Shown here piece by piece: positions 9,989-33,915 of a DNA stretch of 60,411 bases (positions are counted from its first letter, which is position 1; every line of letters begins with the position of its first letter). Location: positions 1 to 60,411 of the forward strand of contig CAZNEH010000004.1 of NCBI GenBank assembly GCA_964572175.1. The letters are read 5' to 3'. This DNA comes from an uncultured Gammaproteobacteria bacterium. GTDB lineage: Bacteria; Patescibacteriota; Patescibacteriia; UBA9570; CAZNEH01. A model generated the notes under the pieces. The model saw nothing but the letters and a program-made list of their open reading frames with translations, had not been told where the DNA came from and did no database searches. Made by a program: the position numbers and the translations under genes.

Positions 9989-10009
9989 AATCGCGCAATA
10001 ATCGCGCAA
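9989..10009 (+). repeat. 21-bp direct repeat, left copy (AATCGCGCAATAATCGCGCAA)
   Basis: Identical copy at 11590-11610; a third ATCGCGCA unit at 10013-10020. Confidence 0.8.
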
Positions 10010-10027
10010 AATATCGCGCAATTAAAT

Positions 10028-10097
10028 AAAAAAAGCCCTCTTCCGCAGTTTACCTCGCCACAGCTTTAGCGGCGGCGGGTTCCCCGACGGAAGAGGT
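10028..10097 (-). terminator. GC-rich terminator hairpin of the 10119-10457 gene
   Basis: cctcttccg...cggaagagg stem followed by a T-run on the minus strand. Confidence 0.65.
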
Positions 10098-10118
10098 TGT
10101 TGGTTCTTGTTCTCCGAC

Positions 10119-10457
10119 TCAGATGAGCCAGCGAACGAACCGGACCAGCAGGTGCCAGGCGGTCCAGGTCTCTTCGTGCGAGATCCAGTAGGTGATGGCG
10201 CCGAGAACCAGCGAGGCGACGAAGGTGTAGAGGGGGATGTTTTCCCCGATGTTGTCGAGGAAGGCGCGCTTCAGGACTTGTCGCAGGGAGGGCCTAGCCT
10301 CCTTACGCAAGAAGGAGTAGGAGCTGCTGAAGTCGAGGAGCAGTCCGAGGCCAGAGAGGCAGAAGAGGATCAGAGAGATGACCCAGATCGTAGCCCCGCC
10401 GCAGAGCAGGAGTTCCTTGAGGTAGGGCCAGCAGAACAGGAAGGCATCAGTGAGCAT
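10119..10457 (-). CDS. GC-rich small membrane protein, unknown function
   Basis: ATG at 10457 preceded by GGAGG; C-ending codons; two hydrophobic segments; promoter TTGACT-17-TAAGGT on the minus strand near 10492-10520. Confidence 0.6.
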   Translation of the reverse strand: MLTDAFLFCWPYLKELLLCGGATIWVISLILFCLSGLGLLLDFSSSYSFLRKEARPSLRQVLKRAFLDNIGENIPLYTFVASLVLGAITYWISHEETWTAWHLLVRFVRWLI

Positions 10458-10602
10458 GGGGTTTTTCCTCCCCCGGTTGAAGTTCACTTAAACCTTATAA
10501 TTATTAACCTTTCTAGTCAAGGTGATTACCCTTGACATTTTAGATATTTTATGACAAAGTAGGCTCACCCCCCCCCCACTGCCCTCAGAAAGGAGGCACC
10601 TG

Positions 10603-11508
10603 ATGACTATGTCCCGTCCCCCCTCGCAGAGCGACGAGCACTTCGAGTACCAGATCTACGGGGATCACCACGAGGCCACACACTGCATCGTGTTCCTGCA
10701 CGGTACCCTGCTCAGCAGCTTCGGCATGTTCACGGGCCGGCAGATCAGCCAGCTCATCGCCATGGCCGAGCGAGACCTGGGCCACAAGGTCTGCATCCTG
10801 GCCTTCACCAGGCCCGGGTACGGCCACCCCGAGATCGAGAACACCACCGTCGACTTCGGGTTCATGGCTCGCCGCTACGCCGACAAGATCCGCAAGCTGG
10901 GGTTTACCCCCCTGGCCGTGATCGGTCACTCCGGTGGCTCCCTGACGGCTCACTACCTGGCCCTCCGGCTTCACCAGAGCTACCCGGACATCCGTCTGGT
11001 CCAGATCGCCCCCACCTGCGCCAACGACGTCCTCAAGTACCACCAGTTCCAGGGCAAGCTCAAGTTCCAGTGGATCCGCGACCTCTTCAGCAAGTGGCCG
11101 CTCCTGCCCCGCCTGCTGTCCTGGTCCATCGGCCAGCTCAACAAGCGCTCGGCCAAGACCCAGTTCGAGACTTGGGCTCAAGGCGCTGACGAGTGGATGC
11201 TGAGCGATCCGGAGATGCGCGGTGGTCTGTCCGAGTCCATCCAGCGCTCGGCCAGTAACTCCCGCTGCGGCTGCGGCTTCCACCTGGACTACGAGGTCTT
11301 CGTCTCCCGGTGGCGCACCATGAAGCCCTTCCAGAACTCCCTGCTCCTGGGCTTCAGCGAGGACACCATTGTGCCCCCGGACATGGTTCGCTGCCTGGCC
11401 GACGAGGTCGAAGGTCGCTACCAGATCATGGACGGCGGCCACTTCGACGCCTGGCACCCCGAGAGCATGACCTGGACCACGGTCCTCGAGTTCTGCCTCG
11501 ACCAGTAG
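10603..11508 (+). CDS. GC-rich alpha/beta hydrolase
   Basis: FLHG, GHSGG nucleophile elbow, 'EDTIVP' acid, GGH His; strong SD AGAAAGGAGG. Confidence 0.8.
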   Translation: MTMSRPPSQSDEHFEYQIYGDHHEATHCIVFLHGTLLSSFGMFTGRQISQLIAMAERDLGHKVCILAFTRPGYGHPEIENTTVDFGFMARRYADKIRKLGFTPLAVIGHSGGSLTAHYLALRLHQSYPDIRLVQIAPTCANDVLKYHQFQGKLKFQWIRDLFSKWPLLPRLLSWSIGQLNKRSAKTQFETWAQGADEWMLSDPEMRGGLSESIQRSASNSRCGCGFHLDYEVFVSRWRTMKPFQNSLLLGFSEDTIVPPDMVRCLADEVEGRYQIMDGGHFDAWHPESMTWTTVLEFCLDQ

Positions 11509-11521
11509 GGTGCTGGTCCAC

Positions 11522-11579
11522 AACGACTCGCTGCGCGCGCACCACCCACGGTGCCGCGTAGCCAGTCGTTCTTTTTTTT
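11522..11579 (+). terminator. GC-rich bulged hairpin + T8, related to the cassette 3' hairpins
   Basis: aacgact-c-gctgcg...cgtagc-c-agtcgtt with internal CGCGCGCACC, followed by T-run. Confidence 0.7.
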
Positions 11580-11589
11580 GCTATAAAAA

Positions 11590-11610
11590 AATCGCGCAAT
11601 AATCGCGCAA
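11590..11610 (+). repeat. 21-bp direct repeat, right copy
   Basis: Identical to 9989-10009. Confidence 0.8.
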
Positions 11611-11626
11611 CCCATCCCGCAAAGAA

Positions 11627-12577
11627 TTATTGCATGTCAAAAGTTTTTTGATCTGAACTCACTAATAAATGCCCATGAGAACATTTATGTTTTTTACTAA
11701 AGAGATCTTTTTTTATAGAAATTTGTTCCAAAGTTTCTTTACGAGTGTTTCCCAAAACAACCTGATCCTTGCTTTCCACACATGGAGTAACATCACCATT
11801 AGAAAAAATATTTAGTTGTCCAGTAAAAGCAAAGCACTCTAAAGTTTTTGAGTGTTTTTTTAAAGTTACTTCCTCAGCTAGTTTACAAATTTTATAATTA
11901 TTTTCTTCATTCACAGTAGAAGCAGGAGTAGATAGTTTAATTTTTATTTGATTCCCATATTTTTCTATCATTTCCTTAGTCTTTATAAGAAGTTTCTTAT
12001 AAGCCTCTTCATTAAACTCATATTTTTCTCTCATCTCATCTTTTTTTCCTCGACCCAAAGCTTTAAAAGTTCCAAATCGAATAGTTTCAATTCCCAAGTC
12101 AATGGCAATCGTAATTATTTCCTCCATAAAATCAATATTATTTTTAGTCAAAGTAGTTCTAATTTTTACATTTACTCCTGCTTTTTGATAAGTCTTTAAA
12201 TTAGGAATAATATTTTTATATTGCGCATGCTTAGGGCGAGCAAAATTATCCAAAGAAAACATAACACTGTCAATATTTTTTTCTCTTAAAACTTTAAATT
12301 TTTCATTATAAGGAATAGTCCCATTAGTGATAATGGTCATATTTTCCAAAGTTTTAAACTCATTTAAAATTAGCGGTAAATCCAATCTCAAAAAAGGTTC
12401 ACCACCTTCGATGTGAATATCTTTGTAATCAATTTTATTTAGTTGTTGTACCACCTCAATCATTTCGTCTGTATTCAGCTCGTCTGGTAGAACATTACCA
12501 CTATCTGCTAAACAATGCTCACAGCCCAAGTTGCACTTTTCCGTAATAATTAGATGGATTAATTTATATTTTTTCAT
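11627..12577 (-). CDS. Radical SAM protein with SPASM/twitch-like C-terminus
   Basis: CNLGCEHC (CxxxCxxC), GGEPF, C-terminal C...GDVTPC...LGN. Confidence 0.85.
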   Translation of the reverse strand: MKKYKLIHLIITEKCNLGCEHCLADSGNVLPDELNTDEMIEVVQQLNKIDYKDIHIEGGEPFLRLDLPLILNEFKTLENMTIITNGTIPYNEKFKVLREKNIDSVMFSLDNFARPKHAQYKNIIPNLKTYQKAGVNVKIRTTLTKNNIDFMEEIITIAIDLGIETIRFGTFKALGRGKKDEMREKYEFNEEAYKKLLIKTKEMIEKYGNQIKIKLSTPASTVNEENNYKICKLAEEVTLKKHSKTLECFAFTGQLNIFSNGDVTPCVESKDQVVLGNTRKETLEQISIKKDLFSKKHKCSHGHLLVSSDQKTFDMQ

Positions 12578-20880: not shown

Positions 20881-23754
20881 ATGGAAGGATCAATTGAATT
20901 AAAACAAGGCTCAGTATCAGAAGCAGAAAAAGCAAAATCAGAAATAGACTCTTATTTTGCTGAGTTATTATTATCTGAGCAATACCAAGAAGGAAGCGTT
21001 TTTGATTTATCTAGACAAGTAGAAGATCACCTTCGTCAAATAGCAGAAAAAAATAAAATTAATCTATCTCAAGTAGTTGAGATTTTTTTTGATAATTTAA
21101 TTACAGAATTTAAAAAATATCCCGAAGCTCCATCTCATCTAAGCGCTTTAAGAGAAAATTTATTTTCCGTGTCTCCTAACTTGAGTAATCTTTTGCCAGC
21201 AGATAAAATGATTAGAATAGGCGCTAAAATGACTAGGGCTCCAGAACTACAAAGATCACTAGGAAGTACAATTAACGGAGAATTGGCTTATGAGATGTCT
21301 TATTTAAGAAGAGAACATGTTGAGCAATTAACAGAGCAATTAGCCGAAGCCGCTTCTCACGATTCTTTAGGGGAAGTAGTAGATCAATTAGATTACTTGT
21401 TTAATATTGCGGCCCAGGCTGCTGCTCAAGGAAGTTGGGCCGAGGCTGGAGCTGATAATAGCCAACAATTTTTAGAAGCTGTAGCTACTGCTCGACCAGA
21501 GCCATTAGTTCAACTAATTGCTCAAGCCTATTTAGAAAGATCAGATCAAGAAATTAGAGACCCCTCTAGTTCAGTTTTAGAATACCGTGGCGATCCTGGA
21601 AGCGCTAGAATAAGAGTTTTTACTCCAGAATGGCAAGAAGAAGGCAGAGAATTAAGAGCTAGTTTAAATTTTTATCCACCTCTAAATAATAGTGATCAGG
21701 TTAGATATGTCGCCCCTGGAATAATCGGAATTTTTGATCACGCCGGAGCATTAAGAGGAATATCAGAGATTAATAAAGAAGATATTCCTGAACAAACAGA
21801 AGTTTCAGAACAAGTTATTGATCAGGCTAGAGACTTTGCTCAAAGATTAGTCGGTGATGCTAATTATTTATTTGCTGCTCTGCGTTTAACTAGGCAGTGT
21901 GACTCAGGAATTATAACTAGATTAAACCAGGAAATTCCAGGGGACTGGGAAGAAAATTATCAGATAATAGAGCAATTTAAAGAATTGCAAGCCCAAGCCA
22001 GACAAGAACAAAGCCAAATTCAATTAGCTGCTGAAGAAGCTAATCAACAAGCTAGTATTGATTTAATTAATAATTTTGGAAATGATCAAGCTAAAGAATT
22101 GTTAGCTCAAGGCTATATCGAACAAGCTTTTAACTTAACTGAAAGACTAGCTCCTCCAGAAGAAGTTATGAAATTAAGGCAATTTCACAGCGATTCATTT
22201 AGACAAGCCGAAGAAAAAATAACAACTACTAGACAAAGAATAATAAATGATAACCAGGAATTATTAGATAGAGTTAATGAAATACATCAAGACCTTTATG
22301 AACAGAGACATAAATTACAAGAAGTCATCAATGCGGCGGCTGATGAAGCAGGGGCTAGAAGGCAAGAAAAACTTCCCCAAGCAGAAGTGACTCCTTTACC
22401 AAAAGTTATTTCTAGCTCTAAACACAATCCATATACTCATGATCCATTACAAGACACTGCTTTATTATTAAATAATTTATACAGCCCTGATATCCAAAGA
22501 ATAGTCCAAGAAGATTTAGGCTTAAGCATTAGAGAAATTTCTTTTAGATCTCAGATTCAACTTTTACAATTTTTAGCCCGTGGAGACCAGGGTTCTTTTT
22601 ATCAGTTTGGTCAAGCCTATCAAAGAGAGGGGATTAATCAGGCCGATCTAATGAGTTCTTTCTTTGCCTTGTCTCAAGACCCAGAAATAGGCCGACAAAT
22701 TTTAGATTTTGCTGAAGCTGCCGAACCTGACGAAGTAAATATAGTCTTAGCTCGTTATAACGAAATAACCAAGCACGTAGATTCTTTAGAGTCAGAGGTA
22801 GGCGAGTTTTTTAGAGAAAAAGGAAGAGAAGTAGACACTCGTCGAGTAGTTCAAGAATTAGTTAAAAGAGCTAATCGAGTTTTACTTACAGCGATAGAAA
22901 CAGGTGATTATGAGGCTTTAGAACAAATCAATGCCGATGTGGTTGCCTTTGCTTCATTATGTCGAGTCACTTTAAAAGAAGGTCAAGACATAGCTTTGGG
23001 AGACATCGCTGGTTTTGACCGCCAAGTAGTTAGCACTGCCTTTTTATCTCAAGAACAAAAACAGCAAATGTTAGAAATTGCTAAAAGAAACTATGCTCGT
23101 TTTCCAGAAGTGTGGCAAGAGTTAGAAAAAATATTAGAAGAAGCTCAAGATGATTATTATATTTTAGTAAAAACTATAGATGACCAGCAAGTAGTGGCTG
23201 CTTTTGCTAGAGCCTATCATTTAGATGGTCAGCGGGTCTATTTAGGATCATTAAATGTAAATCAAGATTTGCGCGGCTCTGGAATAGGGGAAAACTTTTT
23301 ACAAGAGACCATTGCCCAACTAGCTGAAGAAAAAACAGTGGTCGCCGTAGTACGATCTGGCGTACAAGCTGGTACTAATTATATAGAAGAACAAGGCTTT
23401 ATCGGAGTAGGGTACCATGAAGACGTTAAAACCAAAAATCATAATGGTTTAATAGATATTGAAACTACTAGAGAAGAATCTCTTCTTGGTCAACGCTCCA
23501 AAGAAGATCTGATTACTGACCAGCAAGAAAATTTTCCTGGCAACCCTTTAGATCATCTAGGCCAAGATTATATTTTAGCTAGATTTAATACTGCTACTCA
23601 ACTAGAAGTCATTGCCCAAGTAAATCAAGAGTTATTAAATAATCAGGGTTATCGTTTAATCAGATATTTTAGCTTAGACCCCAAGGGGGAAGAGAGATTA
23701 TACGGTTTTGAAAAGAAAGTTCAATCTCAAACCGAGGCTGTAGCGGCTGCTTAA
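20881..23754 (+). CDS. Large helical protein with a C-terminal GNAT-like domain
   Basis: 957-aa ORF; 'LNVNQDLRGSGIG' acetyl-CoA motif A. Confidence 0.55.
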   Translation: MEGSIELKQGSVSEAEKAKSEIDSYFAELLLSEQYQEGSVFDLSRQVEDHLRQIAEKNKINLSQVVEIFFDNLITEFKKYPEAPSHLSALRENLFSVSPNLSNLLPADKMIRIGAKMTRAPELQRSLGSTINGELAYEMSYLRREHVEQLTEQLAEAASHDSLGEVVDQLDYLFNIAAQAAAQGSWAEAGADNSQQFLEAVATARPEPLVQLIAQAYLERSDQEIRDPSSSVLEYRGDPGSARIRVFTPEWQEEGRELRASLNFYPPLNNSDQVRYVAPGIIGIFDHAGALRGISEINKEDIPEQTEVSEQVIDQARDFAQRLVGDANYLFAALRLTRQCDSGIITRLNQEIPGDWEENYQIIEQFKELQAQARQEQSQIQLAAEEANQQASIDLINNFGNDQAKELLAQGYIEQAFNLTERLAPPEEVMKLRQFHSDSFRQAEEKITTTRQRIINDNQELLDRVNEIHQDLYEQRHKLQEVINAAADEAGARRQEKLPQAEVTPLPKVISSSKHNPYTHDPLQDTALLLNNLYSPDIQRIVQEDLGLSIREISFRSQIQLLQFLARGDQGSFYQFGQAYQREGINQADLMSSFFALSQDPEIGRQILDFAEAAEPDEVNIVLARYNEITKHVDSLESEVGEFFREKGREVDTRRVVQELVKRANRVLLTAIETGDYEALEQINADVVAFASLCRVTLKEGQDIALGDIAGFDRQVVSTAFLSQEQKQQMLEIAKRNYARFPEVWQELEKILEEAQDDYYILVKTIDDQQVVAAFARAYHLDGQRVYLGSLNVNQDLRGSGIGENFLQETIAQLAEEKTVVAVVRSGVQAGTNYIEEQGFIGVGYHEDVKTKNHNGLIDIETTREESLLGQRSKEDLITDQQENFPGNPLDHLGQDYILARFNTATQLEVIAQVNQELLNNQGYRLIRYFSLDPKGEERLYGFEKKVQSQTEAVAAA

Positions 23755-24497
23755 AGAGTTTGCCAAATATATTCAAATATAGATCTATGAAATCTAGCTA
23801 CTTGTGGATGTTGAATATGAAAGGCCATTAAAGAATCTTTTTCCGCCACTAAATATAAAGCTTTGTCATCATAAATTTCTACCGCATTATCAAACGGATA
23901 CTTTTTACTATCTATAAATTTAACTTCAGTAAATTCTGGATTAACATTTTTAGCATGTTCCCTAGATACAGGGTTATCGACCATGATCATTTTCTTTTTA
24001 ATTCCCTTTCTAATTCTAGCTTTTACATATTTTTCATTAATCTCCTTTACATACTGGTCTACATTAGCGCTATTTACAAAAGTGTAAATTATTTCCTCAG
24101 TATTTAGAGAGTCATGCAAGGCTTTAGCATAAGATTCCTCTCCTTCATAAAAGGTAATTCCTGGCTTATTATTAGCTAAATTATAATCAGAAGTTAATTG
24201 TTTTAAATTAGCTTGAATAGTCTTTTTGGCTTGTTCTAGGTCTTTTTGTCTTTGTTCTACATATTCAGCTAATTTAGAAGGATGTTCTACCCTAAAATGG
24301 GCGATTTTGCCTTTATCATATTGTTCTACAAGCCCCTTTTTCACTAAATCAGCTAGTTTATTATACACATTACCCCTTTTTAAAGGGGTTTCTTTAATTA
24401 TGGCTCCTGCAGAACATTCACCATGTTCTAGCAAATATTCATAGATTAAGACCTCGTCTTGGTCTAGATCCGCTTGTTTTAGGATATCGCTATACAT
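23751..24497 (-). CDS. TrmB-family HTH transcriptional regulator
   Basis: 'E..IY..LL..G...AG.I.....RGNVY..L..L..KGLV' wHTH plus PLD-like C-terminal domain. Confidence 0.85.
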   Translation of the reverse strand: MYSDILKQADLDQDEVLIYEYLLEHGECSAGAIIKETPLKRGNVYNKLADLVKKGLVEQYDKGKIAHFRVEHPSKLAEYVEQRQKDLEQAKKTIQANLKQLTSDYNLANNKPGITFYEGEESYAKALHDSLNTEEIIYTFVNSANVDQYVKEINEKYVKARIRKGIKKKMIMVDNPVSREHAKNVNPEFTEVKFIDSKKYPFDNAVEIYDDKALYLVAEKDSLMAFHIQHPQVARFHRSIFEYIWQTL

Positions 24498-24707
24498 ATT
24501 AATAGGGGATTAATGTTTATTTCTACCTTAATTGTATCTTATTAATATGTATTTGTCAAGGAAATTTGACAAATAAGCCTATATTTTATCCACAATCATC
24601 TAAAATTATAATCATTATAAAACATAATAAAGACAATATAAGCCTAAATAATAACTCCCAAAATAGCCCTTTTTTGACTTAAATTAGCCAATATTTATCA
24701 CAACCTA

Positions 24708-24736
24708 TTGACAAAATATGAAACCTATGATAAGAT
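24708..24736 (+). promoter_or_regulatory. Sigma70 promoter upstream of the long structured leader and cassette array
   Basis: TTGACA-17-TAAGAT with extended -10 TG. Confidence 0.7.
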
Positions 24737-24742
24737 GTCTCG

Positions 24743-25450
24743 TCAAGATGAAACGCAAAGAGAAACTGGAGAAAAGCACACGAACATTACAACCTAGTAA
24801 GAGAGAGCCCAGACACTGATCCTGGGTAAACAAAAGATCAGTAGAACACGCATGTCTCTCTCGTTAACCCTTCGATACGATTTTCCTAAGGAAAATCACT
24901 CAGGGTGAAACAGTTATAGAGATATGCGTGTTCTTTTATAAAAAGGAGTTGATTAATAGAGAAGTAAACCAGAAGTAAAAGTAGAGAGATTACTTCCCTA
25001 GAAATTAAATCCTAGATTACTCTGGAATACCCAAGCCTCCTTATATAAGGCGGAACGGTAAACAACGAGTTAATCAAACGATGATTAGCAAATGAGGTTG
25101 AGAACAGTAAAACGTTTTCCCTCGCAACTACCAAAAGGTGGTTTGAGCAATCAATAGTGCACAGCTAAGTCAACTTCGGTTGACCTGGCTGGCGAGGTTC
25201 TAGGAGCGCTTGCCTAGGACTTCACCAGCCGGTTCCAGTAAATAAACGAAAGGCTACTATTCTAAATACTTCTTAAAGAGCAGGTCCAAGGTGTTGGACT
25301 AAAAGAAGGAACAGAGTAGAGGACATTGACAACTTAGTTCTCCCTAAGCTCATAACTAGATTATGTGTTTAGGGAGCATCACGAGAGACTACGGCTAAAC
25401 GCGCGTTCATCTGGGTTGTCCAGGTGCGTTCGTAAAGCAGAGTCTTTCGT
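24743..25450 (+). ncRNA. Candidate ~700-nt highly structured noncoding RNA or 5' leader
   Basis: Successive hairpins, e.g. 24843-24934, cUUCGg-capped 25162-25191, 25187-25230, 25339-25376, 25381-25450; G-U pairs favour + strand; no ORF >=60 aa in the track before 25365. Confidence 0.6.
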
Positions 25451-25470
25451 TATGTATCATGGAGTCATTT

Positions 25471-25818
25471 ATGACCAAGCTCATCAACCTGACCCCCCAC
25501 GCCCTCACCCTCCGTGCCGTCGATGGCACGGACACCACCATCGCCCCCTCGGGGACGGTGGCCCGGGTCTCCATGACCCCGGGAGTCAAGACCGAGGTCG
25601 AGGGGGTCCCGGTCCCGGTGTGGACCGCGGACGAGGTGGGGGAGGTCACCGGCCTCCCCGCCCCGCAGGAAGGCACCTTCTACATCGTCTCCGGCTTCGT
25701 CGGGTCGGCCTGCAAGGGCCGCTCCGACATCCTCGTCCCGGGCACCGGCCCCAAGGACGGGGCCGTCCGCAACGACCGCGGCCACATCCAGGCCGTGACC
25801 CGCCTCAAGCGGGTCTAG
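25471..25818 (+). CDS. GC-rich cassette A: NLTPH-motif protein, putative Crn4-like ring nuclease
   Basis: MTKLINLTPH...ARV...GLPAPQEGTFYIVS...R.D...P...R...G pattern, which I recall for the Crn4 family; GGAG SD. Confidence 0.6.
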   Translation: MTKLINLTPHALTLRAVDGTDTTIAPSGTVARVSMTPGVKTEVEGVPVPVWTADEVGEVTGLPAPQEGTFYIVSGFVGSACKGRSDILVPGTGPKDGAVRNDRGHIQAVTRLKRV

Positions 25819-25831
25819 ACGGTCACCCCTC

Positions 25832-26140
25832 CCCAGTCATGAGGCAACTGGGAATTCGGAGGACACCTCGCCTCACCCCTGGGAGCACGCGCACCGCACA
25901 CCGCGTGTCGCTCCCATCCTTTTTTCCGCTCAGTATTTCTGCGAAAAATAAACATAGCGCAGCCAAATAGTGAGCGTAAATAAGGATTCTCACATCCTGA
26001 CCAGTAAAGGCCCTATCCACCCTTTGTGGATGCGCGTTCTTCCCAGAGCGCAGAGTGGAGCCACACTGACTGGTAAAAAATCTTGACCCCCCACGGGTCC
26101 CGGGTTCATGAGCCTTTACTCTCGAAAGGAGCAAATCATG
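25832..26140 (+). repeat. Divergent copy of the inter-cassette structured module
   Basis: Pseudoknot 25832-25875, GGGAGC..GCTCCC hairpin 25881-25915, hairpin 25916-25987, multibranch motif 26000-26074, SD GAAAGGAG. Confidence 0.8.
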
Positions 26141-26503
26141 TCCAAGTCCAACAGCGTCCCCACCGCCGCCGAGGAGGCCAAAAGCCTCTTCGAAGAGACG
26201 CTCCCCACCCTCCCCACCACCATCAAGAACGGGGTCGAGCGCCCCGTCTTCCAGTTCGAGGAGTTGAAGGAGGACGGGTCCGTTTGGGTCCACTCCGGAG
26301 CGGATGGCGTCCCCCCCCGAAAGATCGGTTCCATCGGGGAGCCGATCGAGGAGATCATCCCCGACAAGATGATCTCCTCCCTGATCTTGGAGGATGGCGG
26401 GGCCGGGGGGCTCCCCTCCGAACCACAAAAGTACCGGACCTCCGTGGCCCGGCAGCTCCGCCGGGAGCTGGCCGAGAAACTCCTCGCCATGTGCGAGGAG
26501 TAG
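26138..26503 (+). CDS. GC-rich cassette B: acidic hypothetical protein
   Basis: GAAAGGAGCAAATC-ATG start; C-ending codons; MSKS N-terminus. Confidence 0.7.
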   Translation: MSKSNSVPTAAEEAKSLFEETLPTLPTTIKNGVERPVFQFEELKEDGSVWVHSGADGVPPRKIGSIGEPIEEIIPDKMISSLILEDGGAGGLPSEPQKYRTSVARQLRRELAEKLLAMCEE

Positions 26504-26504
26504 T

Positions 26505-26796
26505 GCCTAGTCCAGGCCTAAGACACGTCTGGTGAAAAAAACAACTGTCTTCAGACGGGAGCCCGCGCATCGCACACCGCGCCGGTTCCCATCCTTTTTT
26601 ATTTTCATCATCCAGCATGGTGAACATAAATAAGGATTCTCACATCCTAAACCAGTAAAGGCCCTATCTCACACCTCGCGAGATGAGCGTTTCCTAGAAA
26701 CGCAGAGTGGAGCTACACTGACTGGTTAAAAATTAGACCCCCTCGTGGGTCCCGGGTCATGATCCCGGTTACTCTTTGAAAGGAGATATCATGTCC
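26505..26796 (+). repeat. ~290-bp inter-cassette direct repeat, copy 1
   Basis: Near-identical to 27027-27317, with differences only in the first ~40 nt. Confidence 0.95.
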
Positions 26797-27024
26797 CAAT
26801 CCATCGCCACGTCCCCCCGCCCCCAGTCCACCCCCGTCCGGTGCGCGCAGTGCGTGCATTGGGTTGAGAAGATGGGGGGCTTCGGCCTCTCCGTCTCCGC
26901 CAAGGAGAAGGGATTGAAGTTTTGCCTCGGCCAAAGGGCCGAGGCCTTCACTATGGGGATGGAGGACGCCTGCGTCCTCACCCCGCCAGACCACTTCTGC
27001 GCCCTGGCAAAAAAGAAGGAGTAA
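26791..27024 (+). CDS. GC-rich cassette C: small Cys-rich protein (77 aa)
   Basis: GAAAGGAGATATC-ATG; CAQCVHW...C...C...C. Confidence 0.65.
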   Translation: MSQSIATSPRPQSTPVRCAQCVHWVEKMGGFGLSVSAKEKGLKFCLGQRAEAFTMGMEDACVLTPPDHFCALAKKKE

Positions 27025-27026
27025 GC

Positions 27027-27317
27027 GCCTAGTCCAGACCTAAGACACGTCTGGCGAAACAAAAACTGTCTTCAGACGGGAGCCCGCGCATCGCACACCG
27101 CGCCGGTTCCCATCCTTTTTTATTTTCATCATCCAGCATGGTGAACATAAATAAGGATTCTCACATCCTAAACCAGTAAAGGCCCTATCTCACACCTCGC
27201 GAGATGAGCGTTTCCTAGAAACGCAGAGTGGAGCTACACTGACTGGTTAAAAATTAGACCCCCTCGTGGGTCCCGGGTCATGATCCCGGTTACTCTTTGA
27301 AAGGAGATATCATGTCC
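27027..27317 (+). repeat. ~290-bp inter-cassette direct repeat, copy 2
   Basis: Near-identical to 26505-26796. Confidence 0.95.
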
Positions 27318-27686
27318 AAGTCCATCAACACCGCCGCCCTCGCCTCCCTTCTCGCCCCCTGGTTCGCCAGCGGCGAGGACGAGGATATCCCGACCGGATG
27401 GGAGGTCGAGGGGGCTTACGAAGAGCCCCATCGCGTCCCCCGTGTCCACGGGGAGGTGGACGGAAACCGGATCTACTGCGTAGATCCGGAGGACCACTGC
27501 CCCTTCTGGCTGGTCTGGGGGGGACCGGGAGAAATCCCGGAAAACCTGTTCCACAACGACACCGCCCTCGAGGAGCGCCACGAAAAGCTCCTCGAAATCG
27601 GCAATGCCCTCGGGGGATGGCGAGAGTGCGAGGGGTGTGGAGAGTGTGTCTCAGTGGGGGAGGTATGCCCCCATTGCGGACAATAG
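27312..27686 (+). CDS. GC-rich cassette D: acidic protein with C-terminal zinc ribbon
   Basis: GAAAGGAGATATC-ATG; CEGC...CPHC at the C-terminus. Confidence 0.7.
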   Translation: MSKSINTAALASLLAPWFASGEDEDIPTGWEVEGAYEEPHRVPRVHGEVDGNRIYCVDPEDHCPFWLVWGGPGEIPENLFHNDTALEERHEKLLEIGNALGGWRECEGCGECVSVGEVCPHCGQ

Positions 27687-27697
27687 GCGCACCCAGC

Positions 27698-27830
27698 CCA
27701 GACCTGAGCATGTCTGGACACAAACAAACAACTGTTCACCTGGAAGCGTGCGCCTTGCACCGGCCGCGCTTCCATCCTTTTTTCTTTCCATTACTCTTTC
27801 TCTCTCTAGAGTAGTGGAGGGAAAAAAGAG
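27698..27830 (+). terminator. 3' module of the last cassette: pseudoknot + GC hairpin + U-tract hairpin
   Basis: ccagac/gtctgg stem, loop tgagca pairs tgttca; tggaagcg...cgcttcca then T-run; ccattactct/agagtagtgg. Confidence 0.7.
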
Positions 27831-27888
27831 GAGAACTAAGTTGATTTAAGGCAAAAAATATGCTATACTTAATAAGTAAAATAAAAAA

Positions 27889-29007
27889 ATGACACAAATA
27901 AGATATTTTGAACAAAGTGGGGGATACTACCCTATTTTTATTACTAAAGACTCTGGAGAAGAATTAAGAATTGGAGCAGCCTCAAATTATTGGGGAAGCG
28001 TAACTCTAAGAAAAGAGTTTGACCAATTAAACCCCCAAGAGCAGCAAGAGGTTATTAGACAAATAAAAGAAAAAGTTATTACCCCGGAACAATGCGCCGA
28101 GATCAATTGGCAGAAAACAGAAAAAGATTCAAACATTACAGATTTACGACAAGATTTAACCATTTTAAAAACGTCTGGAACAACCCTAGAGCATAGTTCT
28201 AACGTATATGATAGGCACGCAACATCCGGATATTCCCCGGATGAACGACGCGGCCCAGTGTCTTACACTAAGCAAGTACGTGTCCATAAGTTGTTAATTA
28301 AAGATAAGAAATTAGAGACTATTGGAAGTTTTCGCTTTTATGGATCTCCGGATAATCTGGAAGAAGTTAAGCAAGGATTATTAAGTGAAAAAGAAGCTAC
28401 ATTAAAAATGCTGCTGTCGCAAAGAGAGAAAGTTACAAACCCTTCCTTAGATCCTAGGATTCATGAAGACTTATCTCCGGAAGAATGGAGTCAAAGATAT
28501 AAAGAACGTTTTGATGCTTTATTTCAAGAGGCACTTTCTCGATGGGAGGCCGAAGATCAAGCAGCTAGAGGAGAGCAGGAATTAAAAATACAAGAATATC
28601 AGAATGCGGTTGAAGTATTAAAGGAACTGGTGCTACAAGCAGAGGAAAAAAAAGAGGAAATAAAAAAGAAAGCTCATTTTACCGATCATCCTCAATTTCC
28701 TTATACTGATTTTCGTTCTTTGGACATGATTATATTTTTTATAGATAGAATTAAAAAATATTTAGCTGATTGTGATCAGGCCATCCTTGAAGCTGAAAAA
28801 AAGGAAAAAGAGCTGGAGCCGGAACCAGAACTTCCTTCTTCTGAGCCGAATGAGCCCGTAGAGCCAGATCCCGAACCTGAGCCTAAAACTTATCAGCCTC
28901 CTAAAGAAGCGCTTAGCTTTAACGCTCTGCAAGCTGCTTTTGGCGGAGCCGCTAAGATGGACAGAAAACCCAGGAAGAAAAGAGGTAAGAAAAATCGTAG
29001 AAGATAA
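27889..29007 (+). CDS. Hypothetical charged/coiled-coil protein with Pro-Glu linker and basic tail
   Basis: 372-aa ORF with AT-rich codons; TATACT upstream. Confidence 0.6.
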   Translation: MTQIRYFEQSGGYYPIFITKDSGEELRIGAASNYWGSVTLRKEFDQLNPQEQQEVIRQIKEKVITPEQCAEINWQKTEKDSNITDLRQDLTILKTSGTTLEHSSNVYDRHATSGYSPDERRGPVSYTKQVRVHKLLIKDKKLETIGSFRFYGSPDNLEEVKQGLLSEKEATLKMLLSQREKVTNPSLDPRIHEDLSPEEWSQRYKERFDALFQEALSRWEAEDQAARGEQELKIQEYQNAVEVLKELVLQAEEKKEEIKKKAHFTDHPQFPYTDFRSLDMIIFFIDRIKKYLADCDQAILEAEKKEKELEPEPELPSSEPNEPVEPDPEPEPKTYQPPKEALSFNALQAAFGGAAKMDRKPRKKRGKKNRRR

Positions 29008-30633: not shown

Positions 30634-31593
30634 CGTAAATTAGTCAAGACCTTTGCACCACTTCCAGTGGTGTTTGGTAGTTTATTCCCATGTGTAATCT
30701 TTCAGTATTGTAATAATGCAAATACTCATTTATCTTCCTGTTTAACCAGGGAGTATTATTCTTGTATTTAATAATTTCATCTCTCATCTCTTCTTGAATA
30801 GTTCTATTAAATCTTTCAACATGAGCATTGTCGTTAGGTTTTCTCACTCTAGAATGTCTATGCTTTATTCCAATGGGCTCAACCATAGAGGTGAAATATT
30901 TTGAGAACTCAGGGCCATTATCAGATTGAATACATCTAAAGTTAAAAGGAGTGTTTTTCCTAGCTTCTTTAAACGCTTGTAAAGAAGAATAAGTATTCAC
31001 TCTATTCATGGCTTTAGCCTGGGCCCACCTGGAATGACAATCTATTAAAGTAAAGATATAAACATTGTTTTTATTACTTTTTGGTATGTGAATAGTATCT
31101 AGTTGTCCTAAGTCCCCAGGTTTAGCTATTTTAGGACGCTTTATGTTTTGATGATACTTTTTCCAAGGAGAACGCTTTTTAATTAAACCATATTTGTCTA
31201 AGGTTCTTTTAACTGTAGAAAGACTTACTTTAATTCCTTCTCTTTTAAGTTGAGCGTGAACTATTTGAGCACATCTATTTCTTTTTAATCTTACTTCTAA
31301 TATTCTTTTTATTATTTTCTCATCTGTAGCTCGAGGGGATGTTTTGGGCCTAGAAGATAAAGTTGGAATTTCATAAATTGTGCAAGTAGATGGAGACTTC
31401 TGCAACCAACGTACCACACTAGAATGAGATACTCCAAAGTGTCTAGCTACTTTTCTAGTGCTCCAACCTTTATTTTTAACTAACATAACTGCTTTTGCCC
31501 TGACCTTGGGCAAATAGGGATTTGTTGTATATGGCATATGATTTATCATACCTTAAAATAGGTTAGGTGGTGCAAAGGTATTGAACCATTACG
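30634..31593 (-). mobile_element. IS481-family insertion sequence, 960 bp, 6-bp TSD GCACCC
   Basis: Imperfect terminal IRs (cgtaa..tcaagacctttgcaccac / gtggtgcaaaggtattga..ttacg); GCACCC at 30628-30633 and 31594-31599. Confidence 0.85.
30644..31537 (-). CDS. IS481-family DDE transposase
   Basis: HTH N-terminus; QLDT, QSDNGPEF, NAHVERFNRT, YNTERLH; likely start MPYTTNP. Confidence 0.9.
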   Translation of the reverse strand: MPYTTNPYLPKVRAKAVMLVKNKGWSTRKVARHFGVSHSSVVRWLQKSPSTCTIYEIPTLSSRPKTSPRATDEKIIKRILEVRLKRNRCAQIVHAQLKREGIKVSLSTVKRTLDKYGLIKKRSPWKKYHQNIKRPKIAKPGDLGQLDTIHIPKSNKNNVYIFTLIDCHSRWAQAKAMNRVNTYSSLQAFKEARKNTPFNFRCIQSDNGPEFSKYFTSMVEPIGIKHRHSRVRKPNDNAHVERFNRTIQEEMRDEIIKYKNNTPWLNRKINEYLHYYNTERLHMGINYQTPLEVVQRS

Positions 31594-31599
31594 GCACCC

Positions 31600-31628
31600 T
31601 TGACAAAAGCTTATTTTTGTGCTAGGAT
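31600..31628 (+). promoter_or_regulatory. Sigma70 promoter for cassettes E-F
   Basis: TTGACA-17-TAGGAT with extended -10 TG. Confidence 0.7.
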
Positions 31629-31673
31629 GTTTAGTCAGTTTCACCTGTTCTTTCCCCCAAAAAACCAAGGCCC

Positions 31674-31710
31674 CATGAGCCTGCAACTTAGAAAGGAGCA
31701 AATCATGTCC
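31674..31710 (+). repeat. 37-bp translation-start repeat (CATGAGCCTGCAACTTAGAAAGGAGCAAATCATGTCC)
   Basis: Identical at 32827-32863; related at 26107-26143. Confidence 0.9.
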
Positions 31711-32688
31711 CAGTCCACCTCCATCGCCACCATCATCGTCACCCACGGCGGTGAGTTCCACGCCGACGACGTGTTCTCCGGAGCAGTGCTCTCGGCCCTG
31801 GCCCCCGAGGCCGAGGTCGTCCGCACCCGCGACGAAGAGTGCTTGTCCTCGGCCACCTCCGAGAACGGCCCCATCGTCTTCGACGTCGGCGGCGACTACG
31901 ATGCCACCCTGCGCAACTTCGACCACCACCAGGAAGATGGAGCCGGCACCCGCCCCAACGGCGTGCCCTACTCCAGCTTCGGCCTCATCTGGCAGTACTA
32001 CGGCCGCCTGTACCTGGTCAAGGTACTGGGTAGCGAGCTCAACCTCGACTACAGCGACCTCCACAAGATGGTCGACGAAGACTTGGTCCAGGGCATCGAC
32101 AGCATCGACACCGGTGCGGTCGTCAACCCGTACTTCCAGCCCCAGATCAAGGACAACGAGGTTTCGGTCGACGTGTCCACGGTCTCCAAGGCCGTGTTCG
32201 CCATGAACCCCCAGCCCTTGCTCGGCGACCAGGACTACGACTCCGAGTACCTCCAGGCCGTGGCCGTGGCCCAGTCCCTCCTCCAGGGTGTGGTCAAGGC
32301 CTGCGCCGCCAAGCTGCTCGGCAAGACCCTCATTAAGTCCGGCCGCCGCTTCACCGACCGCATCGTGGTCGTCGAGGAGAACGTCCCCGAATGGTGGAAG
32401 ATCGTCTCCGACCCGGACAGCGGCTTCTCCGAGGCGCTCTACTACCTCGAGCCGGACCAGTCCACCCCCGGCGCCTGGATGATCTGGTTGGTCCGGAAGA
32501 CCCCCGACACCTTCGAGGGCCGCAAGTCCCTGCCCGCCGCCTGGGCCGGCAAGCGGGGTGGGGAACTGGACCAGATCACCGGCCTCACCGGCTGCGTCTT
32601 CGTCCACCCCGGCCGCTTCGTTGGCGGGGCCAAGGACCTGGACACGGCCATCGCCATGGCCAAGCTGGCCATCGAGATCGAGGACTAG
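31705..32688 (+). CDS. GC-rich cassette E: MYG1-family (UPF0160) exonuclease/phosphoesterase
   Basis: THGGEFHADDV, VRTRD, DVGG, FDHHQ, SSFGLIW, FVH motifs. Confidence 0.9.
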   Translation: MSQSTSIATIIVTHGGEFHADDVFSGAVLSALAPEAEVVRTRDEECLSSATSENGPIVFDVGGDYDATLRNFDHHQEDGAGTRPNGVPYSSFGLIWQYYGRLYLVKVLGSELNLDYSDLHKMVDEDLVQGIDSIDTGAVVNPYFQPQIKDNEVSVDVSTVSKAVFAMNPQPLLGDQDYDSEYLQAVAVAQSLLQGVVKACAAKLLGKTLIKSGRRFTDRIVVVEENVPEWWKIVSDPDSGFSEALYYLEPDQSTPGAWMIWLVRKTPDTFEGRKSLPAAWAGKRGGELDQITGLTGCVFVHPGRFVGGAKDLDTAIAMAKLAIEIED

Positions 32689-32715
32689 CATCTGAGCCCG
32701 ACAGGATCGGGCTCC

Positions 32716-32810
32716 GGGAGCCGCGCGCACCGTGCCTCACGTACACCGCGTGCCGCTCCCATCCTTTTTCCCCTTCATTATTCTAAAAAATAGTGAATGG
32801 AAAAGAGGAT
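32716..32810 (+). terminator. Cassette GC hairpin plus U-tract-sequestering hairpin
   Basis: GGGAGCCGCGCG...CGCGTGCCGCTCCC ATCCTTTTTCC ... GGAAAAGAGGAT. Confidence 0.7.
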
Positions 32811-32857
32811 TTCCCCTCAAGGCTTTCATGAGCCTGCAACTTAGAAAGGAGCAAATC

Positions 32858-33193
32858 ATGTCCGTCAACCGTTACTTCAATACCGCCCTCGGCCTTAGCA
32901 TGCTTCCGGACGGCGAGTTCTCCGTCCAGACCATTACCCCCGAGGCCGCCGCGGCTTGGCTGCTGGAAGGTCACCAGAACGTGGCCAACCCCAACCACAG
33001 CAACTCCCTGCAGGCCATCACCCAGAAGATCGACGTCGACATGCGCGACGCCAAGGGCGGCCGCATCACCCTCGAGCCGGGCGATCAGTGCTTGGTGGCC
33101 CAGATCGGCGGGATTCCCCGCGAGACGCGGGAGTTCACAGACGAGGAGATCGCCGCGGCCACCTTCACCTTCCGGCTGGTGACCGTCAAGTAG
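32858..33193 (+). CDS. GC-rich cassette F: divergent DUF1874 (AcrIII-1/Crn2 ring nuclease-like) protein
   Basis: By-eye colinear match to STIV B116-type proteins: NTALGLSML, NPNHSNS (His), RITLEPGDQCLV, PRETREFTDEEI, FTFRLV; 111 aa. Confidence 0.65.
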   Translation: MSVNRYFNTALGLSMLPDGEFSVQTITPEAAAAWLLEGHQNVANPNHSNSLQAITQKIDVDMRDAKGGRITLEPGDQCLVAQIGGIPRETREFTDEEIAAATFTFRLVTVK

Positions 33194-33220
33194 TCACCGC
33201 CTCCGCACCTTCTTCCCTCC

Positions 33221-33265
33221 GGGAGCCGCGCGCAACACCCCGCGCGCCGCTCCCTCTTTTTATTT
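33221..33265 (+). terminator. Cassette GC hairpin terminator
   Basis: GGGAGCCGCGCG...CGCGCGCCGCTCCC + T-rich tail. Confidence 0.75.
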
Positions 33266-33321
33266 ACCTCGAGCTTAGTCGAGAGGTTTGCAAAAACTTT
33301 TTTTTGTGTTATAATAGGTCC

Positions 33322-33915
33322 ATGCCAATCAAAAAAATAGACGCTAAACTAAGGTCTACGCCTTATATTTCCTTTATTTGGGAAGTTACTAAGGTAGTAG
33401 TCATTTCTTTAGCTATTATCATTCCGATTAGATACTATCTAATCCAACCCTTTTACGTTCGCGGCGCCTCTATGGAGCCGAATTTTTATGATTACGAATA
33501 TTTAATTATTAATGAAATTGACTATCGTTTTAACTCTCCGGAAAGAGGGGACGTAGTTGTTCTTCACGATCCTCGTGATTCATCTCAGTATTTTATTAAA
33601 CGCATTATTGGTCTTCCTGGTGAAGACGTGGAAATCAAAGATGGTGAGGTAATTATTTATAACGACGAAAATCCAAGCGGTATTACCCTGGAAGAAGGGG
33701 AGTATCTTTCAGATTACGTAGACACTCGCGGTCCGCAAAAAATCTGGCAAATGGATGAAGACGAATATTTTTTAATGGGCGACAATCGTGATGCTAGCTT
33801 AGACTCTCGTGTTTTTGGAGAAGTCCATAAAGAAGAATTTATTGGCCGTGCCTGGCTCCGCGCTTGGCCTGTTACTCGTGCGACTAGCTTCGAAGATATT
33901 AATTATAATTTATAA
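33322..33915 (+). CDS. lepB: Signal peptidase I
   Basis: GASMEP Ser, IKRIIGLPG Lys, MGDNR..SLDSR; ATG 6 nt after TATAAT. Confidence 0.92.
   Translation: MPIKKIDAKLRSTPYISFIWEVTKVVVISLAIIIPIRYYLIQPFYVRGASMEPNFYDYEYLIINEIDYRFNSPERGDVVVLHDPRDSSQYFIKRIIGLPGEDVEIKDGEVIIYNDENPSGITLEEGEYLSDYVDTRGPQKIWQMDEDEYFLMGDNRDASLDSRVFGEVHKEEFIGRAWLRAWPVTRATSFEDINYNL

Follow-up and report, generated by a model that had tools for sequence, protein, structure and literature searches.

A gene of the Crn4 ring nuclease family in a GC-rich cassette of a Patescibacteria chromosome: probable phage-derived anti-signaling cargo

The window analyzed here is the whole stretch of 60,411 nucleotides (nt) from positions 1 to 60,411 of contig CAZNEH010000004.1 (assembly GCA_964572175.1), which belongs to an uncultured Patescibacteria bacterium of the candidate phyla radiation (CPR). 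The host genome (hereafter G000; 1,075,507 bases in 51 contigs, 98.32% complete) has a GC content of 37.8%, and the window, at about 36% GC, contains three islands of 56 to 66% GC, at approximately 10000 to 11650, 25350 to 27850, and 31600 to 33350. The first island holds an alpha/beta hydrolase gene (as recognized by Pfam), the second consists of four units, cassettes A to D, and the third of two more, cassettes E and F. Our subject is cassette A, the first unit of the second island, whose product, P0001, is a homolog of the Crn4 ring nucleases, enzymes that degrade cyclic oligoadenylate (cOA) signals (coordinates of all features are in Table 1).

The cassette A frame is open for 115 codons, without an internal stop, and ends in TAG. 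Its translation carries the short motifs that had led the first-pass annotation, made from the nucleotide sequence and its reading frames, to suggest Crn4, and all of them are present at the places where they had been reported: I5-N6-L7-T8-P9-H10 near the N terminus, then A31-R32-V33, then G61-L62-P63-A64-P65-Q66-E67-G68 followed by Y71-I72-V73-S74, then R84-S85-D86, and lastly R100 and G104. The N terminus of the homologous protein P0015 also reads MTKLINLTPH, which favors the ATG at position 25471 as the start codon over an upstream ATG at 25459. P0001 has no match in Pfam or NCBIfam, and its two matches in PHROGs (phrog_21731, E value of 2.4e-21; phrog_30542, 9.9e-18) are families of unknown function. 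A word-index search recovered 674 proteins at E values of ≤1e-3, the best of them 69 to 73% identical and none with an informative name, and an exhaustive search returned 4746 cluster representatives at ≤1e-3, with 878 at ≤1e-10. In an alignment of 29 family sequences, the invariant residues include N6, L7, T8, P9, and H10, A31, R32, and V33, V73 and S74, R84, and D86, together with a C-terminal part consisting of P90-G91-T92-G93-P94, D96, G97, R100, and G104. Because the motifs first noted coincide with invariant columns and the family is large, the motif pattern is beyond chance. A Pfam scan of 17 longer relatives (165 to 356 amino acids [aa]) for fused domains gave a single weak and uninformative match, to a double zinc ribbon.

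The Crn4 family was described in late 2025 from a source set of 22 CRISPR-linked genes, 11 phages, and 10 plasmids, and its fold, which combines paired beta strands, one short helix, and a beta-hairpin arm, is in the authors' account unlike other solved folds (Chi et al., Nat Commun 2025, PMC12830947). When P0001 alone was compared by phmmer with proteins of solved structure, it matched Crn4b (entry 9r7b) at an E value of 8.3e-6, and a profile built from the 29 aligned sequences matched the same entry at 8.9e-12, Crn4a (9sma) at 4.8e-9, and the H15A variant of Crn4a (9qs9) at 1.7e-7; these matches are nearly full length, and the next solved structure follows at an E value of only 0.76. The AlphaFold (AF2) model of P0001, with a predicted local distance difference test (pLDDT) score of 96.5 and a predicted template modeling (pTM) score of 0.83, leads to the same family: all seven Foldseek matches at E values of ≤1e-3 are Crn4 chains (the next match is at 2.3), and the best is again 9r7b (E value of 1.1e-8, template modeling [TM] scores of 0.77/0.78, root mean square deviation [rmsd] of 2.5 Å, 31% identity). 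Alignment of the model to the Crn4 entries with VIA-align gave Z scores of 12.9 (rmsd of 2.6 Å over 109 residues), 12.4, and 11.6, and upon VIA realignment of the 230 best Foldseek chains, no chain other than those of Crn4 attained a Z score of 2.

The residues on which catalysis depends in Crn4a can be located in P0001 as well. According to the description of the family, T13, H15, and R112 are conserved in all Crn4 members (S91 and R92 are not named among these), the substitutions H15A and R112A abolish the activity of Crn4a, the enzyme functions in EDTA, and the catalytic His of one subunit works with the Arg of the other in an arm-exchanged dimer (PMC12830947). In the profile alignment, the invariant T8 and H10 of P0001 fall on T13 and H15 of Crn4a, and R100 falls on the Arg of the “vRD” motif of both Crn4a and Crn4b; the single-sequence phmmer alignment placed K95, not R100, at the position of the catalytic Arg. 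A homodimer of P0001 is predicted with a score of 0.78, against 0.00 for the best of three controls. Among proteins of known structure, 20 of 30 solved as a pair of one chain and 1 of 23 solved as a single chain attain this mark, counts that apply only approximately because an alignment of our own was the input. At least 97% of contacts are common to the dimer runs, the partner pLDDT is 91 or higher, and the predicted interface sets arm residues 43 to 54 against residues 109 to 115 and 14 to 16 of the partner. Since Crn4 dimers have already been solved, this result may reflect likeness to them and not independent proof. Profile, fold, and catalytic-residue comparisons thus all agree with the first-pass annotation in calling P0001 Crn4-like, and in the profile and Foldseek comparisons that it had proposed as a check, only Crn4 entries matched credibly. 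Together, the alignments and the model support the placement of P0001 within the Crn4 family, on an uncharacterized branch with a possibly different substrate range.

Of the two characterized types, Crn4b is the more similar in fold (as given above for 9r7b) and in sequence, with 31 to 33% identity to P0001. Both have the NLTPH motif with the catalytic His, the “VS” strand, RxD, and the catalytic Arg (R103 in Crn4b); P0001 also resembles Crn4b in its small size, in lacking the region of about 10 residues that marks Crn4a, in its predicted arm-exchanged dimer, and in having relatives on phages and plasmids (PMC12830947). In contrast to Crn4b, the P0001 gene is located in the chromosome of a CPR bacterium in which no Can2 or type III locus was found. 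The Crn4a of Actinomyces procaprae (9sma and 9qs9) shares with P0001 four functional positions, T13, H15, S91, and R112, kept as T8, H10, S74, and R100, but it is only 23 to 25% identical, has a longer hairpin arm, and is encoded in type III-D loci, next to Csm6-2 and CorA (PMC12830947).

The other features of the locus are collected in Table 1. The terminator hairpin of cassette A begins 62 nt past the stop codon, and its sequence module is common to cassettes B, C, D, E, and F. Cassettes B to F also have in common a 5' module that ends in a ribosome-binding site (RBS) of the AAAGGAG type followed by an ATGTCC start, to which cassette A is the exception, as it lacks this module and stands behind a leader of about 725 nt. 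The promoter candidate, situated about 735 nt 5' of the cassette A start, is the sole promoter-like site on the plus strand ahead of the ORF and, as a consensus match, may be the one that cassette A uses. Rfam yielded no match anywhere in the window at its gathering scores, an E-value scan of positions 24400 to 28000 produced chance-level names of eukaryotic microRNAs and long noncoding RNAs only, and a tRNA search of the window found none. The leader contains an inverted repeat of 17 nt (arms at 24843 to 24859 and 24918 to 24934), and a 38-nt piece between its arms, at 24867 to 24904, recurs at 97% identity elsewhere in the genome (G000 C14:25773-25810), with weaker copies at C4:35679-35721 and C17:17825-17870. 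The alignment of the whole leader region (24498 to 25480) with the corresponding part of another CPR locus (L009, 7005 to 8010) is not above chance, and a conserved leader was rejected.

Table 1. Genes and candidate signals around cassette A and in the neighboring GC-rich island
Feature	Coordinates	Strand	Basis
Gene for a transcription regulator of the TrmB family, oriented divergently to cassette A	23751..24497	-	27% identical to Pfam-TrmB neighbor in L009 (E value of 5e-25)
Sigma-70-like promoter candidate, TTGACA-17 nt-TAAGAT, TG before the -10	24708..24736	+	Consensus match, 10/12
Long leader (~725 nt) of cassette A	24737..25460	+	No open reading frame (ORF) of >42 aa wholly within; no Rfam family
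Shine-Dalgarno-like GGAG	25461..25464	+	By sequence; spacing of 6 nt to the cassette A ATG
Cassette A coding sequence (P0001), 115-aa homolog of Crn4-family ring nucleases	25471..25818	+	ORF ending in TAG, homology, model
Intrinsic-terminator-like element	25880..25925	+	13-bp hairpin at 25880-25916, T6 run at 25920-25925
Cassette B, 121-aa ORF, no family detected	26138..26503	+	Library scans; shared 5' RBS and 3' terminator modules
Cassette C, 77-aa ORF, no family detected	26791..27024	+	Library scans; shared 5' RBS and 3' terminator modules
Cassette D, 124-aa ORF, no family detected	27312..27686	+	Library scans; shared modules; C-terminal Cys pairs by eye only
Cassette E, MYG1/UPF0160-family (PF03690), phosphoesterase type	31705..32688	+	Pfam E value of 1.2e-61, 209.5 bits; shared modules
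Cassette F, 111-aa protein of the DUF1874/AcrIII-1/Crn2 fold	32858..33193	+	Homologs, profile, model

The regulator gene that diverges from cassette A owes its TrmB label to its likeness to a protein of locus L009, the Pfam TrmB matches themselves being those of the neighbors in L009 and L016. In three CPR loci, namely, the window, L009 (6204 to 7004, minus strand), and L016 (811 to 1602, plus strand), the Crn4-like gene has a TrmB-family regulator 1 to 1.5 kb upstream, a recurrence that may be accidental in genomes rich in TrmB or may reflect a regulatory link. An ancestral slot shared with L009 was considered and rejected: identity between the two TrmB proteins is only 27%, and the large proteins encoded upstream are not related to each other.

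An independent assembly of sequencing run X1 (possibly the source sample) produced one contig that covers positions 23500 to 26572 with zero differences and extends from the AT-rich backbone through cassette A and across most of cassette B. Because this contig is identical across the junction of AT-rich and GC-rich DNA, the junction is not an artifact of binning. A second X1 contig matches just the 38-nt leader piece, a short dispersed repeat. The run look-up for cassette A listed no RNA data set, and the only run holding the sequence was X1, possibly the source of the DNA itself.

At 72% GC, and with a GC content at third codon positions (GC3) of 0.95, cassette A departs strongly in composition from its host genome, and the same tendency marks the family: the Crn4-like gene is GC richer than its flanks at 23 of 24 loci in genomes and at all 28 viral loci examined, phages of 34 to 45% GC included. 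A high GC3 is not dictated by the protein, as the values go down to 0.25 to 0.39 in the most AT-rich hosts. The coding RNA of cassette A has a minimum free energy of -188.2 kcal/mol, compared to -161.7 kcal/mol (standard deviation of 6.45) for dinucleotide shuffles (z score of -4.1, 0 of 100 as good), and is also far more structured than synonymous-codon permutations that keep both protein and codon usage (z score of -5.4, 0 of 40 as good); for the gene of phage L035, the two z scores are -7.3 and -6.5, respectively. Dinucleotide z scores of ≤-2.5 were obtained for 17 of 24 Crn4-like genes (8/9 plus 9/15) versus 7 of 27 flank segments of equal length, the loci concerned in this RNA analysis being L007 to L009, L013 to L021, L035 to L042, and L066, besides cassettes A to D of the window. 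Cassettes B to D are likewise strongly structured; E, F, and the gene of the first island are not. An excess of RNA structure specific to Crn4-like genes was rejected, as several CPR flanks are equally structured, and strong coding-RNA structure is thus enriched in Crn4-like genes without being specific to them.

The remaining 31 genomes of the order yielded no homolog of cassette A. Of 401 Patescibacteria genomes, sampled evenly, a Crn4-like gene is present in 9, a gene resembling DUF1874 (the family of cassette F, discussed below) in 8, and RAMP genes in 9. Crn4-like and RAMP genes occur together in a single genome (G192), DUF1874-like and RAMP genes in none, and both ring nuclease types only in G000, such that RAMP genes are present in 1 of the 16 carriers of either type. 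One DUF1874-like match (G347:C17:6300-6632, minus strand) contains an in-frame TAG. Five further CPR genomes with a Crn4-like gene gave no Csm1 match above the cutoff (0/5), and weak Csm1 matches in G032, G033, and G036 were rejected as Cas10, since they lie below the cutoff and cover only about the first 150 profile positions.

Relatives of P0001 occur at 24 loci on genome contigs, 10 of which are titled as CPR lineages, and the best three (61 to 63% identical) come from two Saccharibacteria metagenome-assembled genomes (MAGs) and one unclassified 1-Mb MAG. A Pfam scan of 217 ORFs around 18 of the genome loci revealed CRISPR-related neighbors at three: RT-Cas1 and RAMP at L025, Cas6 at L020, and Cas_VVA1548 at L012. 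The check proposed in the first-pass annotation, whether homologs neighbor type III CRISPR loci, thus shows CRISPR-related genes in 3 of 18 neighborhoods, with RAMP among them only at L025. Prophage or integrase marks lie near another three of the 18 (L018, L022, and L027). The occurrence of the family in phages, which had also been put forward, is borne out by 22 phage records in INPHARED (32 to 41% identity) and by 61 loci in IMG/VR, the closest of which are 68, 65, and 64% identical; their contigs measure 139, 266, and 145 kb, respectively, and have flanks of 59 to 68% GC. PLSDB holds eight plasmid records, and these and the INPHARED records are in line with the 11 phages and 10 plasmids of the published set; in that account, phage and plasmid homologs of Crn4b have no association with type III loci (PMC12830947). 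Around eight viral loci, the 83 ORFs scanned include those for an endolysin, thymidylate kinase, ArdA, orphan methyltransferases, and a UvrD helicase, and no cas gene is among them.

In a tree of 76 rows from 91 matched loci (rows with <86 matched query residues and identical duplicates being left out), cassette A falls within a supported clade (98/83) of eight rows, of which five are viral, one is from Saccharibacteria, and one is from the unclassified 1-Mb MAG. CPR sequences occupy at least five separate places in the tree and are interleaved with viral rows, which indicates repeated exchange between phages and CPR bacteria, the direction of which is not given by the tree. In a supported clade that is mostly CPR, the Crn4-like gene is followed by a gene for a DEAD/Helicase_C protein of about 1000 aa (L012, 8001 to 13799; L013, 7884 to 11987), maybe a conserved module. 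Downstream of the Crn4-like gene of L012 lies, in addition, a protein matching Cas_VVA1548 (E value of 4e-20), which we take to be Csx16. Csx16 is itself described as a cA4 ring nuclease (PMC12409355).

Would the host itself produce the signal that a ring nuclease destroys? Profile searches of G000 found no Csm1/Cas10, no RAMP, and no SMODS/CD-NTase protein, a simple repeat finder detected no CRISPR array, and no CRISPR-like genes were seen within the islands of the window. There was no match to a Card1-type nuclease, a weak blank because the control matched once and below the cutoff. The type III neighborhood that characterizes cellular Crn4a and Crn4b was not found in G000. A GGDEF match at C3:57597-58082 was rejected as a cOA synthase, being an ordinary 340-aa GGDEF protein with no CARF-type neighbor recognizable by eye. 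A source of cOA is, on these results, likely absent from G000.

Cassette F, in the third island, is the second gene of the window with a resemblance to ring nucleases. Its match to Pfam PF08960 (STIV_B116-like/DUF1874) covers profile positions 12 to 100 of 101, with an E value of 0.0011 and a score of 19.5 bits, under the cutoff of 26; many of its 53 homologs, however, carry a precomputed PF08960 annotation. Profile matches to solved structures are weak but full length (2j85, STIV B116, E value of 0.02; 2x4i, SIRV1 ORF114, 0.035; 6scf, AcrIII-1, 0.45), and a model with a pLDDT of 94.3 matches, in Foldseek, 6scf at 7.2e-6, 2j85 with TM scores of 0.75/0.72, 2x4i with 0.73/0.80, and the Csx1-Crn2 protein 8y7f at 1e-4. 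The invariant His47 of cassette F aligns with the GH-motif His of 2j85 and 2x4i, which is the catalytic His of AcrIII-1/Crn2 (PMC12830947). Profile and model support the assignment of cassette F to the DUF1874/AcrIII-1/Crn2 fold, unrelated to that of cassette A, and the proposal of the first-pass annotation that two structurally unrelated ring-nuclease-like genes share one cassette format is upheld to this extent. Its further suggestion, that the pairing points to selection for anti-signaling cargo, is more tentative, as G000 has no visible cOA source and is alone among the 401 sampled genomes in having both types. AcrIII-1/Crn2 resembles Crn4 in function, as a small, dimeric, His-dependent cA4 ring nuclease and viral anti-CRISPR, and differs from cassette A in its unrelated fold and from Crn4 in specificity, the published enzyme being cA4 specific and Crn4 broad (PMC12830947, PMC12409355).

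Directly upstream of cassette F, in identical cassette format, is the MYG1/UPF0160 gene of cassette E, and, judged from these family assignments, a two-step breakdown by the two products, ring opening followed by clearance of the linear products, is conceivable. A 301-aa ORF on the minus strand (30644 to 31549) that abuts the low end of this island has, by eye, the look of an insertion sequence transposase with an integrase core (rve type). Atlas look-ups gave no usable match for cassette B and only leads below 0.9 for cassette D. The islands of the window are part of a wider pattern in G000, whose 300-nt windows of ≥55% GC form 88 high-GC stretches in the 1.08-Mb genome (some of which may be rRNA) and in which 209 ORFs of ≥50 aa combine a GC content of ≥55% with a GC3 of ≥0.70, a number that includes opposite-strand shadow frames. 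In being small, foreign-looking genes with their own terminators, inserted between resident genes and with 5' and 3' modules that recur between units, the cassettes resemble phage morons and promoter/terminator cassettes of the PeSL type, from which they differ in having a bacterial chromosome, not a phage genome, as their location. At cassette A, a terminator is present, and the only plus-strand promoter candidate ahead of the ORF is the distant one in Table 1.

Given the orphan context of the gene in an AT-rich CPR chromosome, and its nearest relatives on high-GC phage contigs and in CPR genomes, the capture of a phage-type gene is its most likely origin. We consider it probable, at about 0.62, that cassette A encodes a ring nuclease of the Crn4 family that came from a phage as anti-signaling cargo, an interpretation that draws on sequence, model, and analogy. 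By analogy with Crn4a and Crn4b, the product would be a homodimeric, metal-independent phosphodiesterase whose two subunits swap a beta-hairpin arm and so enclose cyclic tri- or tetraadenylate (cA3 or cA4) and perhaps cyclic hexaadenylate (cA6). The general acid would be His10 of one subunit, with the scissile phosphate held by Arg100 of its partner, and the cOA ring would be cut to linear products with 2',3'-cyclic phosphate ends. The gene would then be a phage-type anti-signaling gene, directed against type III CRISPR or against cyclic-oligonucleotide-based antiphage signaling (CBASS), that has been captured as chromosomal cargo.

Several observations weigh against this interpretation. With no cOA synthase found in G000, a ring nuclease has no evident substrate there. 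At the same time, an unrecognized cyclase may be present: the SAVED search of G000 is uninformative, its control having matched in no genome, and the CARF families were covered by one model only. Nor does a high GC content have to indicate recent import. That the gene is missing from the 31 further genomes of the order is as compatible with loss elsewhere as with acquisition in this lineage, and with CRISPR neighbors at only 3 of 18 loci, most of the family lacks the association by which Crn4 was defined. The protein itself departs from the characterized enzymes: immediately ahead of the catalytic Arg, its branch carries an insertion of 5 residues (consensus PGTGPxDG) that neither Crn4a nor Crn4b has. 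In addition, of the Ser-Arg pair that contacts the ligand in Crn4a (S91 and R92), the Ser is invariant (S74) and the Arg is missing from the branch: its position is occupied by G75 in P0001, and of the 29 aligned members, 28 have Ala or Gly there and one has Ser. R92 of Crn4a makes main-chain contacts and stacks its guanidinium on an adenine; Crn4b retains it as the Arg of VSR (PMC12830947). The insertion and the absent R92 equivalent mean that the substrate range of the branch may differ. Translated relatives from the homologous loci form a continuum of loop types in which the catalytic Arg is kept throughout, for which reason P0001 is filed within the Crn4 family.

These departures are what lend some weight to a reading in which fold and chemistry are those of Crn4 and the substrate is another, such as linear oligoadenylates, nanoRNAs, cyclic dinucleotides, or imported cyclic oligonucleotides, and in which the enzyme would contribute to the salvage or homeostasis of nucleotides in a scavenging-dependent bacterium, without interfering with immunity. 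Crn4a is reported to have broad specificity and to cut even a 12-nt polyA RNA, G000 has no visible source of cOA, and the MYG1/UPF0160 gene directly precedes the DUF1874-type gene in the neighboring island. In the same report, however, the cleavage of polyA is slow and its relevance doubted by the authors, and cAAG is left uncut by Crn4a (PMC12830947); a salvage function, moreover, would not predict a gene that is rare in the phylum (9/401) and absent from the rest of its order. The closest relatives are phage genes, and we regard this reading as unlikely. Alternatively, the enzyme could be a housekeeping ring nuclease that resets endogenous signaling, as the cellular Crn1 to Crn4 do, where the signaling system has escaped recognition by lying in the unassembled ~2% of the genome or by belonging to a cyclase or effector family outside our searches. 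Cellular Crn4 has this role in type III-D loci (PMC12830947), the genome comprises 51 contigs, and CRISPR arrays, like other repeats, are often left unassembled, the SAVED and CARF coverage was limited as described, and RAMP genes do accompany the Crn4-like gene in one (G192) of the nine Patescibacteria genomes that carry it. Against this, Cas10/Csm1, RAMP, and SMODS matches are wanting in a genome that is 98.32% complete, nothing CRISPR-like occurs in the islands of the window, and RAMP is lacking from eight of the nine sampled genomes with a Crn4-like gene and from all eight with a DUF1874-like gene, which makes endogenous resetting quite improbable.

An inert passenger, that is, a recently captured phage gene that is too young to have decayed and has no current function, would account for the contrast between a GC3 of 0.95 and a genome of 37.8% GC, for the lack of homologs in the rest of the order, for nearest relatives from phages, and for the lack of a visible substrate source. 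Yet all 25 positions invariant in the family are intact, an RBS is present together with a terminator module like that of the neighboring cassettes, no recent donor is in view (no relative exceeds 73% identity, and the closest viral one is at 68%), and comparable GC-rich copies exist in other CPR genomes, and we give the passenger scenario just as little credence as endogenous resetting. A more far-reaching idea, which we regard as a long shot, is that the ring nucleases are working tools of an ultrasmall, mobile-element-like episymbiont and quench the cOA alarms of its host cells or those raised in its own phage infections, with base-paired, GC-rich mRNAs that would resist collateral single-strand RNases. 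It is prompted by the intact genes, the lack of visible cOA production of the bacterium's own, and the folding of coding RNA beyond synonymous permutations in cassette A and most of its relatives, and it includes the MYG1-type product of cassette E as a possible oligonucleotide-clearing enzyme. Capture of cassette A as phage-derived anti-signaling cargo remains the interpretation that we prefer.

Published ring nuclease surveys, as their accounts describe them, covered only type III loci from complete genomes, a curated set of phages, and PLSDB (PMC12830947, PMC12409355), and a full-text search of the literature collection consulted here found no paper that combines ring nucleases with Patescibacteria or the candidate phyla radiation. 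The relatives of Crn4 recovered here are far more numerous than the published set and lie mostly outside CRISPR loci, and they include an uncharacterized branch in which a loop insertion beside the catalytic Arg could shift the range of substrates. If active, P0001 would be a compact new reagent, at 115 aa, for removing cOA signals. In Patescibacteria, ring nuclease genes belong to two unrelated folds, and nearly all the genomes that carry them lack type III machinery, which raises the question of what role cOA-degrading enzymes may have in cells that make no cOA.

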